A DNA stretch of 64,000 bases from a virus, in IMG/VR virus record IMGVR_UViG_3300014808_000001, positions 83,720-147,719 of that record, one strand, 5' to 3'. Every line of letters starts with the position of its first letter. Position 1 is the stretch's first letter. Positions 5,843 through 36,417 of this stretch are shown here, in pieces. The notes beneath the pieces were generated by a model. It searched no databases and had not been told where the DNA came from. It saw only the letters and a program-made list of their open reading frames with translations. Position numbers and translations under genes: made by a program.

Positions 5843-6496
5843 ATGGATAATACTTGTATTCCTTTTGTGTTAATAAACGACAGAAAAATGATTGACGCAA
5901 AACATGTTCATAAATTGTTAGAATGTAAGTATGATTTTAAACATTGGATTAAGGATGTAATATCATCTTTTAATTTTAAGGATGGAATAGATTATATATC
6001 ATATAGATATGATAATAATGGAGAACAAATAATAGATAATAATAGTCATGTATTTAGGCATGACTATTATTTATTCCCCAAATCGATTCTGTGTATCATC
6101 TATATGAAGTGTGATAGATCTTTATTTAAAGATTTTATTTATGATATATTTGATTGTTGTAATATTAAAAATGACGATCGGGTATTAGATATAATACATA
6201 GATCTATCGATAGGTATAATAAAAAATGTATAAAATATTTTACATATATAATAAGAAATAATAATAATGGTTTTTATAAAATAGGTAAAAGCTCTGATGT
6301 AAAAAGAAGGCTATCTGGGTTGTCTATTGTAGAAGATAACTTAACATTAATAGCTTATGTGAATAAAGATATAGAGAGCGAGCTTCATGCAAGATTTGAT
6401 ATCAAAGGGATATACAGAGAATGGTTCAACTTATCAGATTGCGATTTGAATGATATAATTGATAAATATAAATTCAAGTTGTGTGACATGGCTTGA
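5843..6496 (+). CDS. AntA/AntB-like N-terminal domain fused to T5orf172 (GIY-YIG-like) domain protein
   Basis: N-term DAKHVHKLLECKYDFKHWIKD...GIDYI resembles AntA antirepressor N-domain; C-term GFYKIGKSSDVKRRLSGL matches T5orf172/GIY-YIG-like motif; gene is far more AT-rich than neighbours. Confidence 0.55.
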   Translation: MDNTCIPFVLINDRKMIDAKHVHKLLECKYDFKHWIKDVISSFNFKDGIDYISYRYDNNGEQIIDNNSHVFRHDYYLFPKSILCIIYMKCDRSLFKDFIYDIFDCCNIKNDDRVLDIIHRSIDRYNKKCIKYFTYIIRNNNNGFYKIGKSSDVKRRLSGLSIVEDNLTLIAYVNKDIESELHARFDIKGIYREWFNLSDCDLNDIIDKYKFKLCDMA

Positions 6497-10340: not shown

Positions 10341-10543
10341 TGGAAACATTAATCTTAAATGTACCTGTATTTTCTGGTAAGATTATTTCTCCTACATGGA
10401 TTAAGGCCGTAAGGGATTTCCAATCCAGATCGAAGGCAGAAAGAGACTTGTATTGTTCGGTTTGTGGATGTACAGGAGGGTGTAACTTATGCGATGATGT
10501 AAGTAAATATAGGATTTCAGAACAACTAAAATATTATAGATAA
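10313..10543 (+). CDS. hypothetical small Cys-containing protein (76 aa)
   Basis: ORF in same operon-like run. Confidence 0.3.
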   Translation: MLYEYFAKIMETLILNVPVFSGKIISPTWIKAVRDFQSRSKAERDLYCSVCGCTGGCNLCDDVSKYRISEQLKYYR

Positions 10544-10544
10544 C

Positions 10545-11177
10545 ATGGTTAGAATCGCATATTTCGAAACCGATGGCCACCCTGGTCATCACGTTATTCC
10601 AATACGAGGTAAATTCACAGAAGAGGATATTAAGGTAATAGAATCTGTAGATTGTGATGATTTCTATAAGGTGTTTGACGTCATGCGTTTTAAGATAGCT
10701 GAGTTTAAAGGATGGACGATATTGGGAATCCCGGCAAGCTTAGACGATCATAGACCTGGAAGCAAAACCGTTATCTTCATAGAGGGTAAAGCTAACGAAG
10801 CTGATTTTATGGAAGTCATACAAGAGTACTCTTTTCTTAAAAATAAGGTAAAGAAACTTACCGAATTGTATCATGATGGAGAATGGCTTGCGACTGGTAA
10901 ATTGAATCAAGATCCGCCTACTAACAAGGAGCGGTTTCAATTTACATTAGACAAGGATGATATTATTAACATGATTAGGGGAGTCGTTTTAAATCCTTAT
11001 TCTGATGTGGCGAATGAAATGGAGAAAATCGGATTGGGATTATCATCTGATTCTTCATATGAGGGTCCCACATGGTCTTGGTTTATTAATAAAGTAGATG
11101 TTTGGCAGAATAATGCATGGGATGGTTTTTCTGCTGAGTTCTTATTGGATTTGTATTGTAGGATAAAGAAAGTATAG
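10545..11177 (+). CDS. hypothetical protein (210 aa)
   Basis: ORF; antisense small ORFs are shadows. Confidence 0.45.
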   Translation: MVRIAYFETDGHPGHHVIPIRGKFTEEDIKVIESVDCDDFYKVFDVMRFKIAEFKGWTILGIPASLDDHRPGSKTVIFIEGKANEADFMEVIQEYSFLKNKVKKLTELYHDGEWLATGKLNQDPPTNKERFQFTLDKDDIINMIRGVVLNPYSDVANEMEKIGLGLSSDSSYEGPTWSWFINKVDVWQNNAWDGFSAEFLLDLYCRIKKV

Positions 11178-11188
11178 TAACAATTAAT

Positions 11189-11482
11189 TTGAAACAAATC
11201 ATGGGATTAGACGATTTTAAAAAAGATGTAATTAGAGTGATGACAAAAGAAGAGTTCGAATCAACAATTGAAGAAGATATTAAATTCGTTGAAGGATTCA
11301 AGTATTTCTTAAGACATGATGATGCTACAAGGATAGTGGAACACATCAAGTCCGTGTTAGAAGCATCAGTGGACTACTATTATCCTAATCATCCTAAACC
11401 TGAAGCAGAACCAGGAGACATGGGAGAAGTTTCTGATGGATACCACACTTTCAATATCCGAAATAACATTAAAACAATATAA
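11189..11482 (+). CDS. hypothetical protein (97 aa)
   Basis: ORF ending immediately before the IscB-associated non-coding region. Confidence 0.4.
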   Translation: MKQIMGLDDFKKDVIRVMTKEEFESTIEEDIKFVEGFKYFLRHDDATRIVEHIKSVLEASVDYYYPNHPKPEAEPGDMGEVSDGYHTFNIRNNIKTI

Positions 11483-11742
11483 TTTCATTATAAGGTTTTA
11501 ATGTACCAGAAATGGTCCGGATATTAGCCTAAGCCTTGAAACGAAGGCTACGTTATTTGAGAATAGATAGTTACCTACGGATGTTTACCCAAGTCTGTAG
11601 CTCTAAGGCAAGCGATTAAACAGTTCTGGTATTTGAGGAACAGTGTTGCTTGCGAAAAACCTTAAATAACATTGGCGATGGGTACTAACAGGATGAAATA
11701 TTCCTGACTTATGTTGAATAAACATTGAAAACGTTTGTAGAT
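11483..11742 (+). ncRNA. candidate IscB omega-RNA (OMEGA guide RNA scaffold), boundaries approximate
   Basis: 260-nt ORF-free region immediately 5' of iscB, the canonical omega-RNA position; local hairpin AGCCTT gaaacg AAGGCT; longer-range complementary pairs GCAAGC/GCTTGC and CCAGAA/TTCTGG. Confidence 0.45.
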
Positions 11743-12963
11743 ATGGTGTACGTACAGGATATAAATGGTAAACCTATGATGCCTACAACAAGGCATGGAA
11801 AGGTTAGGAGACTGCTTAAAGAAAACAAGGCAGTTGTTGTAAACCTATGTCCGTTTACCATCAAATTAATTTACGTAACATCCGATTACAAACAAGAAAT
11901 TGTGTTAGGCGTTGATGCTGGAGCTAAACATGTTGGTTTATCAGCAACGACGAAAAGCAAAGAGCTTTACAGCAGTGAAGTTATTCTTAGAAATGATATC
12001 GTAGATCTTTTATCTACAAGAAGAGAGTCAAGAAGGGTGAGGAGGAATAGATTGAGATATAGAAAACCTCGTTTTGACAACAGGGTAAAAAGCAAGCGTC
12101 CAGGATGGGTAGCACCTTCGGTGAAGTACAAAATAGACGCCCATATTCGTGTTATTGACAATGTATGTTCTATATTACCAATATCTCGTATTGTTATTGA
12201 AGTAGCTCAATTTGATACTCAGAAGATTAACAATCCTGAAATATCAGGTAAAGAATATCAGGAAGGAGATCAACTTGGTTTTTGGAACACAAGGGAGTAT
12301 GTTTTAGCAAGGGATGGGCATAAATGTCAGTATTGTAAAGGAAAATCGAAATCCAAAATCCTTAATGTTCATCACATTGAATCCCGAAAAACGGGAGGTG
12401 ATTCCCCTTCTAATCTTATTACCTTATGTGAAACTTGTCACAAAGAATACCATAAAGGTAATATAGATTTGAAGATCAAACGGGGATCGTCGCTTCGCGA
12501 CGCGGCCGTAATGGGAATTATGAAATGGAGGTTGTATGAAGAGTTAAAATCCAGATACGACAGAGTTTTTATGACGTTTGGTTACATTACGAAACATAAT
12601 CGGATTAAATACGGGATTGAAAAATCCCATACATCCGACGCGTTTGTCATTTCTATGAACATTAATGCGAAACGAATCGAACGTCAATATTTAAAACGTT
12701 TAATTCGTAGACATAATAGACAAATACATAAAATGAAAATTTTAAAAGGAGGAAAGAAGAAAAACAATCAAGCTCCTTTTGAGGTTTTCGGATTTAGATT
12801 GTTTGATAAAGTGTTTTATAACAATAAAATATTCTTTGTTTATGGAAGGAGAAAATCAGGGAATTTCAATATCAGGGATTTCAACGGAGAAAACCCGAAG
12901 GATGTTTCACGCAAAAAGTTTAAACTCATTAGAGGTAAGAGGCATCCGATTATATTAAAGTAA
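11743..12963 (+). CDS. iscB: IscB RNA-guided nuclease (IS200/IS605-family OMEGA effector, Cas9 ancestor), 406 aa
   Basis: N-term MVYVQDINGKPMMPTT (PLMP domain); RuvC-I LGVDAGAKHVG; Arg-rich bridge helix RRESRRVRRNRLRYRKPRFDNR; RuvC-II RIVIEVAQFD; HNH CQYCKG...VHHIESRKTGGDSPSNLITLCETCH; RuvC-III SHTSDAFVIS. All catalytic residues appear present. ORF track start 11725 is TTG; the ATG at 11743 fits the IscB N-terminus. Confidence 0.8.
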   Translation: MVYVQDINGKPMMPTTRHGKVRRLLKENKAVVVNLCPFTIKLIYVTSDYKQEIVLGVDAGAKHVGLSATTKSKELYSSEVILRNDIVDLLSTRRESRRVRRNRLRYRKPRFDNRVKSKRPGWVAPSVKYKIDAHIRVIDNVCSILPISRIVIEVAQFDTQKINNPEISGKEYQEGDQLGFWNTREYVLARDGHKCQYCKGKSKSKILNVHHIESRKTGGDSPSNLITLCETCHKEYHKGNIDLKIKRGSSLRDAAVMGIMKWRLYEELKSRYDRVFMTFGYITKHNRIKYGIEKSHTSDAFVISMNINAKRIERQYLKRLIRRHNRQIHKMKILKGGKKKNNQAPFEVFGFRLFDKVFYNNKIFFVYGRRKSGNFNIRDFNGENPKDVSRKKFKLIRGKRHPIILK

Positions 12964-13000
12964 ATGAACGGATTTAATAAATTTAATAGAAAAACGTATC

Positions 13001-13306
13001 ATGTATAATAAAGAAATCGTGATATGCGCGGCCATCTGGGTACAGGACGACAAGAAACGTCCCTATCAGCCCACCAATATACCATCCGGCACCGTGTTCT
13101 GTGGATTGAGACACCCCTCTATACTATCTCAACTTGCGGCATACGGTATAGCCCATAAGAACCGTAGTGTTCAAGGATTTTTGTCAAGCAAGAATCGGTT
13201 TCTAACAAGAGAGGAAGCATCTGAACTTGTTAAGAGCAATAATCAGGAAATGGTAGTAGATAGGAGTGCCATTAGAGAACAATTGTATTCAGAAGATCTA
13301 TATTAA
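13001..13306 (+). CDS. hypothetical protein (101 aa)
   Basis: ORF immediately after iscB; no recognisable transposase motifs. Confidence 0.4.
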   Translation: MYNKEIVICAAIWVQDDKKRPYQPTNIPSGTVFCGLRHPSILSQLAAYGIAHKNRSVQGFLSSKNRFLTREEASELVKSNNQEMVVDRSAIREQLYSEDLY

Positions 13307-35185: not shown

Positions 35186-36376
35186 TTACAAAATGTTTAC
35201 TCTAATCGGGTTAAACGCAAACCCACTATCGATTATCATGTTTACAAATGAATCACCGAATACTTTTCTACCTATCCCAATAGCTCCATTGATATCCGCA
35301 TTTAACAACTTTCCAACTGAGCTTTGGAATAATCCACGTTTCTTTCTTTTGCCTAAGTAAACATCATGCTTCCCTAATTTCTCAAAAGCTAAATGATCAA
35401 CCTTTGATGTATAGGATTCTTCATTAATTTGAAAGCTGATACCTACCAACTTACATTTATAGGATATTTTGTCTATAAGTCTTGAAAAAGGTATTTCAAC
35501 AAACTTTTGATTAATCTTCTTTCCAAGATTAATCTTTTGTTTCCATCCTTTATTTAAACCTATTACGATACTACCAATGTTGTTAGTAATACAATAATTG
35601 ACAATATATCGACTAACCTTGTGGATGTAGTCTTCTATCCAAAAATTCCTATAATTATTTAGCTGTCTAAGTCTTTCAGAAGTACCCTTACCTCCAACAT
35701 AAGACATTAACTTAGCTTTCCTCTTATTGTACCACTGATTAAAAGATTTCATAATCCGCCCGTTTACAATGAAAGGAACCAATCCGGCATTGCTGATACA
35801 TGAACATAAATTATTCAATCCTAAATCAATCGAAAGAACATTATCCTTATCAAGACTTAGATTATGTTCTTTCTTTTCATAAATTACTTCAACCACATAG
35901 CATGTAGATTGTGGAATGATTCTAACCTGACATAATTTACTATCTCCTATTTCAGTTTTAATTGGTTGAATTATATTTTTAACAAAATGAATACAACCAT
36001 CCTTCTTTAGCCTACAAGCAGAAGTTGTGAACACAACCATGTTCTGTTTCTTGCCTTTCTTGTACGAAGGTAGATGAGGACAACAATTATCGTATTTGGA
36101 AGGATTGTTTTCAAAATCCTTCTTGAGTCTAATCCATGATTTTATATTTTTAAAAACTTGGCCAACTACTTGTTGAAAAACAGAAGTGGGCAAATTCCTG
36201 AAATCAAATTGATTTTCTCTACAAAGTTTGGTTGAAAATTCATATTCATTCAGATATTCTTTATTGAAGATACCTTTACGCGCATTATACAAGACATAAT
36301 TATATAGCAATCCTGATTTGAGGCAAATATCTTCAAATCTGTTATCTTTAATAATATGTTTTTCAACCAATCTCAT
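35186..36376 (-). CDS. tnpB: TnpB-like (IS605 OrfB family) protein with degenerate RuvC-II and no zinc finger, possibly nuclease-dead and TldR-like
   Basis: RuvC-I VLSIDLGLNNL; EDYIHKVSRYIVN helix motif; the expected RuvC-II h-h-h-E-D-L-N is IVIGLNKGW (Glu replaced); RuvC-III NADINGAIGIGRK present; the CxxC...CxxC zinc finger is replaced by a Cys-free segment. First codon in the track is TTG; the ATG follows. Confidence 0.75.
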   Translation of the reverse strand: MRLVEKHIIKDNRFEDICLKSGLLYNYVLYNARKGIFNKEYLNEYEFSTKLCRENQFDFRNLPTSVFQQVVGQVFKNIKSWIRLKKDFENNPSKYDNCCPHLPSYKKGKKQNMVVFTTSACRLKKDGCIHFVKNIIQPIKTEIGDSKLCQVRIIPQSTCYVVEVIYEKKEHNLSLDKDNVLSIDLGLNNLCSCISNAGLVPFIVNGRIMKSFNQWYNKRKAKLMSYVGGKGTSERLRQLNNYRNFWIEDYIHKVSRYIVNYCITNNIGSIVIGLNKGWKQKINLGKKINQKFVEIPFSRLIDKISYKCKLVGISFQINEESYTSKVDHLAFEKLGKHDVYLGKRKKRGLFQSSVGKLLNADINGAIGIGRKVFGDSFVNMIIDSGFAFNPIRVNIL

Positions 36377-36417
36377 CAATCAATTTTACTATTTGAAATT
36401 TCAATTTTATTACCTTT

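Follow-up and report, generated by a model that had tools for sequence, protein, structure and literature searches.

Cas9 descends from IscB-omegaRNA systems, which are under development as compact genome editors. To our knowledge, a natural role of IscB has been shown only for the chromosomal elements of one bacterium. The present work concerns an iscB gene with its omega-RNA in a 64-kb stretch of virus DNA (positions 83,720 to 147,719 of IMG/VR record IMGVR_UViG_3300014808_000001; hereafter the window), which was compared with about 120 related phage loci (labelled L001 etc.). The reference OMEGA IscB, OgeuIscB, stems from a human-gut metagenome and is represented by the structures 7UTN, 7XHT, and 8CSZ of the Protein Data Bank (PDB), and its target-adjacent motif (TAM) is given as NWRRNA (PMC12660989). 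The ISGst IscB of Geobacillus stearothermophilus belongs to an IS200/IS605-type element, takes its guide from outside the transposon end, needs read-through transcription, and has the motif TTCAT, which on the IscB strand reads ATGAA, in common with the transposase (Meers et al., bioRxiv 10.1101/2023.03.14.532601). Moreover, HEARO RNA has been reported from Silviavirus genomes (PMC13346280), and IscB homologues are on record by annotation in phages, as in the HEARO/IscB loci of Staphylococcus Silviavirus phages, Clostridium phage c-st, and Ralstonia phages; like the window, these loci place IscB in a phage genome, but the proteins are only 30-50% identical to the window IscB and were annotated without analysis of ends, guide, or TAM. 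Homing of IscB elements into co-infecting phages has been put forward as a theoretical proposal (PMC13565253). In the literature searched, no account was found of the present gut-phage lineage, its 406-aa protein, docking on ATG start codons, or a series of TAM-adjacent guide replacements, and a search on its nearest annotated relative, phage csAssE-Sib, returned nothing relevant.

Judged from its sequence, the window element works like the known IscB-omegaRNA OMEGA elements. The reading preferred here, with a probability of about 0.75, is that it constitutes a non-autonomous OMEGA element of the IS200/IS605 type (ISC), whose nuclease would act in RNA-guided homing and retention. The features on which this reading is based are collected in Table 1.

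Table 1. Features of the IscB element, its flanks, and the transposase-bearing element of sibling phages (positions refer to the window unless a locus label is given).
Feature	Position	Strand	Description
Mobile element	11454..13000	+	1547 bp; omega-RNA and iscB; probable non-autonomous IS200/IS605-type (ISC) element
Omega-RNA scaffold	11454..11738	+	Rfam core 11454..11689, then another two conserved hairpins reaching the iscB start
iscB	11743..12963	+	406 aa; PLMP/RRXRR, split RuvC (D58, E153, H296, D299), HNH (H210-H211, N224, H233; Cys4 zinc finger), C-terminal region 304-406
Predicted guide	11438..11453	+	16 nt, GGATACCACACTTTCA; flank DNA left of the element
Predicted TAM (ATG)	13001..13003	+	Start codon of downstream gene 13001..13306
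Other element end	12964..13000	+	37 nt beyond the iscB stop; would be the left end in the transposase frame
Gene remnant	11189..11482	+	97 codons of a WDGH + Tad2-like gene; putative source of read-through transcript and guide; stop codon inside the element
IS605-like TnpA-TnpB element	L144 2484..4122; equivalents L145-L159; L087 2476..2586		1.65 kb; divergent tnpA and tnpB

The iscB open reading frame (ORF) opens with an ATG, and an in-frame TTG lies further upstream at 11725. All motifs listed in the original prediction were located in the encoded protein: the PLMP sequence GKPMMPTT, RuvC-I with D58, the Arg-rich bridge helix, RuvC-II with E153, the HNH domain, and RuvC-III with H296/D299. 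The NCBIfam equivalog model NF040563 (guided_IscB, "RNA-guided endonuclease IscB") scored 356 bits with a cut-off of 175, Pfam RRXRR matched residues 2-175 over its whole 174-position profile (E 1.8e-59), and Pfam HNH (residues 195-238, E 1e-10) was placed between RuvC-II and RuvC-III. When the protein was searched against solved structures, the best relatives were the IscB chains of OgeuIscB 7UTN and 7XHT (E ~1e-44), with which it shares the order of the domains. The earlier claim that every catalytic residue is present was upheld by the alignment with OgeuIscB, in which D58, E153, H210-H211, and H296/D299 aligned to the catalytic residues of RuvC-I, RuvC-II, HNH (the catalytic HH pair), and RuvC-III, respectively. 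The OgeuIscB counterparts of D58, E153, H296, and D299 we take to be D61, E193, H340, and D343. These catalytic residues and the four cysteines of the HNH zinc finger (C195/C198/C229/C232) were invariant across 26 close homologues. Unlike OgeuIscB, the window protein is phage-borne and shorter (406 versus 496 aa), lacks an insertion of about 30 residues after the bridge helix (seen as an alignment gap), and has a C-terminal domain without detectable sequence similarity; residues 304-406 presumably form the TAM-interacting domain. The ratio of nonsynonymous to synonymous substitution rates (dN/dS) relative to the window copy was 0.07-0.14 over the whole protein, with 0.06-0.12 in residues 1-303 and 0.08-0.23 in residues 304-406, and the ORF was intact (406 or 408 aa) in most of 80 related copies, about six being shortened. 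By these values, iscB is under purifying selection, its C-terminal region included, and the ORF encodes an intact IscB of the RNA-guided endonuclease family.

The omega-RNA that had been predicted directly upstream was recovered by a covariance-model search, which returned Rfam HEARO (RF02033, omega-RNA) as the sole Rfam match within the window; the match has the orientation of iscB and scores 107.1 bits (E 1.7e-22), the gathering score being 83. The match spans model positions 1-211 and ends 54 nt ahead of the iscB ATG, and the arrangement of a HEARO-type omega-RNA immediately upstream on the same strand equals that of OgeuIscB. The first helix, P1, opens at the first base of the element (11454-11460 paired with 11518-11524), and its arms covary across lineages (ATATCCG/CGGATAT, ATAATCG/CGATTAT, and ATAATCT/GGATTAT). 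A consensus fold of 55 distinct copies contained 53 pairs, 10 of which displayed compensatory (double) changes, and 99.5% of its paired cells could pair, versus 37-41% in a control with slid partners. The Rfam score and the covariation mark the non-coding DNA ahead of iscB as a true omega-RNA. A scan for promoters and terminators gave no more sites than in shuffled sequence.

To place the ends of the element, about 80 copies from at least 14 distinct contexts were aligned. Copies with unrelated left flanks converge exactly at 11454 (ATATCCG... or ATAATCG...), which coincides with the start of the Rfam match, and copies with unrelated right flanks agree up to ...AAAAACGTATC at 13000 and then diverge. 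Of the boundaries 11483-12963 that had been proposed for the locus, the second stands as the end of the ORF; the element itself starts 29 nt earlier than the first, within the last codons of ORF 11189..11482, and extends to 13000. Empty sites were found in related loci: ...GATTGAA/ATGAGCAC... in L041, L042, L045, and L068 fits the flanks of the element in L011, and ...AATAAGGAA/ATGAAAGAG... in L039 fits those in L023 (the slash marks the site), in both cases with no duplication. ATG came first in the right flank in all 14 independent contexts, and in 12 of these it is the first codon of an ORF of 82 aa or more; therefore, the element docks exactly on start codons. When the 12 left junctions described below are included, ATG was present at 26/26 independent junction contexts, and given that ATG makes up 3% of the regional trinucleotides, its presence at 12/12 left junctions corresponds to p ~6e-19. 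Precise, duplication-free insertion directly 5' of ATG is the signature of IS200/IS605 transposition. On the IscB strand, this ATG is placed 3' of the flank-derived guide, which is the position of an IscB TAM, and ATG is the TAM predicted here, versus the NWRRNA given for OgeuIscB (PMC12660989). The ATGAA of Geobacillus holds the same ATG, whereas in the window element, unlike in the chromosomal ISGst with its known TnpA, only the ATG is invariant, start codons are occupied in 12/14 contexts, the host is a phage, and no matching TnpA was identified. The terminal stretch beyond iscB is AT-rich with palindromes that are weak by eye, and the omega-RNA end is highly structured.

Comparison with related phage genomes also led to the probable guide, which, as in ISGst, lies outside the omega-RNA end; the upstream gene has the same orientation and reads into the element. 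The window contains a single copy of GGATACCACACTTTCA, with ATA, where the scaffold begins, directly behind it. Among the fetched sibling loci, 26, including csAssE-Sib, contain it followed by ATGAATTG (13 perfect, 13 with one mismatch), and there the guide matches the uninterrupted WDGH/Tad2-like gene with ATG next to it. This match to the uninterrupted sibling allele fits the proposed role in homing or inter-phage competition, and cleavage would follow by analogy with known IscBs. In csAssE-Sib the intact gene (L001 4396..5151) encodes 251 aa with a WDGH domain (residues 75-177) and a Tad2-like (Thoeris anti-defence 2-like) domain (residues 186-249), both of which are gone from the remnant in the window. 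Window 11169..11455 is homologous to L001 4364..4650, the homology ends at 11455/11456, and window 11456..12997 stands in for 773 bp of csAssE-Sib that encode the C-terminal two-thirds of the 251-aa protein and a 91-aa ORF. At the guide-scaffold boundary, 4-nt length differences in GTTT and TAT repeats were observed between copies (L003 vs L013; L007/L008 vs L002), which look like replication slippage that would change the guide with no new ATG junction being formed.

Some 30 close copies share the right flank of the window (gene 13001) and have varied left flanks. Twelve independent left junctions were distinguished, each followed by ATG in undeleted relatives (the window type, L002, L005, L006, L013, L017, L019/L004, L018, L022, L086, L087, and L115), and with each event accessory genes were lost and a new 16-nt guide was gained. 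By construction, each new guide together with ATG has the undeleted allele as its target. An assembly artefact at the window junction was ruled out by the identical junction in four other independent contigs (L014, L094, L102, and L104). Additional copies were seen at some loci, namely solo omega-RNA-like copies in L020 (1999..2251) and L078 (7456..7714) and a second full element in direct orientation, 4.2 kb away, in L025 (7923..9218); such multi-copy states are of the kind from which inter-copy deletions could arise. L004 has the left junction of L019, and L004 and L018 have its IscB type together with the longer variant of the 5' hairpin (first ~60 nt, equal to window 11454..11515) that is typical of the 83-85% identical lineage; therefore, element lineages recombine among themselves.

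Taken from IscB and IS200/IS605 biology, the following course of events is proposed. Read-through transcription from the upstream phage gene would yield an omega-RNA with GGATACCACACTTTCA as 5' guide, and IscB loaded with this RNA would cut DNA that carries the guide sequence and the ATG. Its targets would be the joint that remains after excision of the element and the uninterrupted WDGH/Tad2-like gene of co-infecting siblings, and its own site would be spared because the guide there precedes ATA, the scaffold start, rather than ATG. Recombinational repair from the element-bearing genome would then restore or copy the element together with the linked deletion, resulting in retention and homing, i.e., a selfish drive. 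New left junctions and guides at ATG would likely be generated by a Y1 transposase acting in trans, either through end-adjacent deletion or through a local hop after which two copies recombine. The predicted outcome equals that of the free-standing phage homing endonucleases of the HNH and GIY-YIG types (T4 Seg and Mob; intronless homing), namely a cut in a co-infecting relative, the repair of which copies over the nuclease gene with the markers linked to it (PMC13565253). Unlike in those enzymes, recognition would be by a flank-copied RNA guide plus a short motif instead of by protein, and therefore self/non-self discrimination would be automatic and retargeting easy. In its furthest form, put forward tentatively and at odds below even, the interpretation holds that these elements are self-retargeting RNA-guided gene drives between co-infecting siblings, which dock on start codons through an ATG TAM, have their RNA end repeatedly rejoined at other ATGs with each guide aimed at the undeleted allele, and spread together with accessory-gene deletions, including that of the Tad2-like anti-defence gene.

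Several observations weigh against the assignment as a mobile homing and retention element. A Y1 transposase was looked for in the window and in the 9-kb loci by tblastn with IS608 and IS200 TnpA sequences and by a motif regular expression, and among 90 ORFs of the window by Pfam; the window yielded none. The same absence, the precise insertion at a fixed motif, and csAssE-Sib as closest record agree with the original prediction of an IscB-only IS200/IS605 element in a phage. A Y1 TnpA of 132 aa with intact HUH and Tyr motifs (YHIIWCPKYRRK, PDHIHIF, RSFYVETIG) was encountered in sibling phages, on 17 contigs, and four of these contigs have the IscB element as well. This TnpA sits in a separate IS605-like element, the ends of which look unlike those of the IscB element; L144, L150, L152, and L156 have a mutated HUH motif (DYIRIF or DYIHIF), and tnpB is split in L144. 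It was not accepted as the mobilising enzyme, with its unrelated ends and probably different target motif. Furthermore, for the junction seen in the window, exact-pattern scans of IMG/VR revealed neither a two-copy nor a simple-insertion intermediate: two chance matches were all that was obtained with patterns representing simple insertion at the WDGH/Tad2 site or gene 13001 preceded by the ancestral left flank. The dS of 0.3-0.4 between copies that share one junction implies long residence and not a recent sweep. The C-terminal ~100 residues were not matched to the TAM-interacting domain of solved IscBs when the C-terminal 88 residues were searched against solved structures, and the AlphaFold model was unusable (mean predicted local distance difference test score 35, from an input of 26 homologues that are 87-96% identical). 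Finally, the guide length of 16 nt is borrowed from known IscBs, and three nucleotides are presumed to suffice as TAM.

Among the rival explanations, an element that is a passive passenger, with IscB solely restoring it among replicating copies after excision from its own phage genome and playing no role towards siblings, would accord with the restoring role shown experimentally for IscB and TnpB in Geobacillus (bioRxiv 10.1101/2023.03.14.532601), and the excision joint, the guide plus ATGTATAAT, would be a valid target under the same rule. The same activity would, however, necessarily cut sibling genomes with a guide match and ATG, which are common among the sampled loci, and excision may be rare as no transposase was found in the window; this explanation is considered unlikely. 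Even more improbable is a plain protein-guided HNH homing endonuclease or decaying pseudogene beside a chance RNA-like region. Such genes are usually labelled 'HNH endonuclease' in phage annotations, but the presence of RuvC-I, II, and III with RRXRR, an RNA model 24 bits over the gathering threshold with covariation, and a dN/dS of about 0.1 refute it, leaving it hardly any credence.

A different origin may be considered for the left junctions, which could be random deletions that fused TAM-adjacent sequence to the scaffold and were later enriched since only these give a working, driving guide. It is in favour of this explanation that no transposase with matching ends was identified, that insertion intermediates were not found by the IMG/VR pattern scans, and that the guide-scaffold junction shows 4-nt slippage variants (L003 vs L013; L007 vs L002). 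Nevertheless, 12/12 junctions are base-exact on both sides, and the same family includes genuine simple insertions at ATG for which clean empty sites are available. This is the signature of IS200/IS605 single-strand transposition and renders a random origin doubtful, and more so than the passenger role.

The element has 341 relatives in IMG/VR, and the best 80 of these 341 are 80-95% identical and reside chiefly on phage contigs of 80-160 kb; two copies are present on several IMG/VR contigs. A large protein database contained more than 8000 IscB homologues, the top 120 all being at least 87% identical, and one cluster of homologues was spread over 547 contigs. These numbers, along with the contigs bearing two copies, speak for an active element in the clade. 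Among 185,579 species genomes only 22 relatives were found, nearly all at most 69% identical. Hence, the close IscB family is phage-borne. An 88% identical copy, far nearer than those in other bacterial genomes, is present in a 20-kb contig assigned to 'Vibrio olivae' CECT 8064 (L122, NZ_JBHMEP010000019.1), which is probably a gut-phage contig within that assembly and not a Vibrio element. IscB homologues occurred in 36/50,697 phage records, and the nearest annotated record, csAssE-Sib (OR575929.1; 151 kb, human gut), is 94.7% identical across the flanks and has no IscB. The host of the element is a roughly 150-kb human-gut phage, and its lineage is very abundant.

The placement in a late-gene region, as originally predicted, was not established. 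An antirepressor-like gene on one side and, downstream, the gene for a virion structural protein of 2140 aa enclose a variable block of small genes of unknown function, and the element is located in this block; the remainder of the window is for the most part devoted to replication and nuclease functions. Upstream of the remnant, window 10364..11168 is an 805-bp segment with a 210-aa ORF (10545..11177, no Pfam match) that is missing from the otherwise collinear csAssE-Sib, and it is a further indel of the variable block around the element. A 217-aa protein encoded at 5843..6496 has an AntA antirepressor domain at its N-terminus joined to a T5orf172/GIY-YIG-like domain and may represent another mobile nuclease-type gene. 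Moreover, the window contains a second OMEGA-type gene at 35186..36379 on the minus strand, encoding a 397-aa TnpB (Pfam OrfB_IS605 1.5e-16; Cas12f1-like TNB 1.3e-07), which adjoins a DnaB-like helicase gene, has no tnpA alongside, and is unrelated in its DNA to the TnpA-TnpB element of the siblings.

The lineage described here offers a very small IscB of 406 aa with an apparently simple TAM, and its hundreds of natural copies define ends, guide, and TAM without experiment. At a single locus the guide has been replaced in a natural series of twelve, every time with the sibling allele as its target, which makes the proposed RNA-guided homing between co-infecting phages directly testable. Moreover, a selfish element is seen here removing a candidate anti-defence gene from its own phage, and if the gene-drive interpretation is true, this would be a case of a selfish element pitted against the fitness of the phage that carries it.

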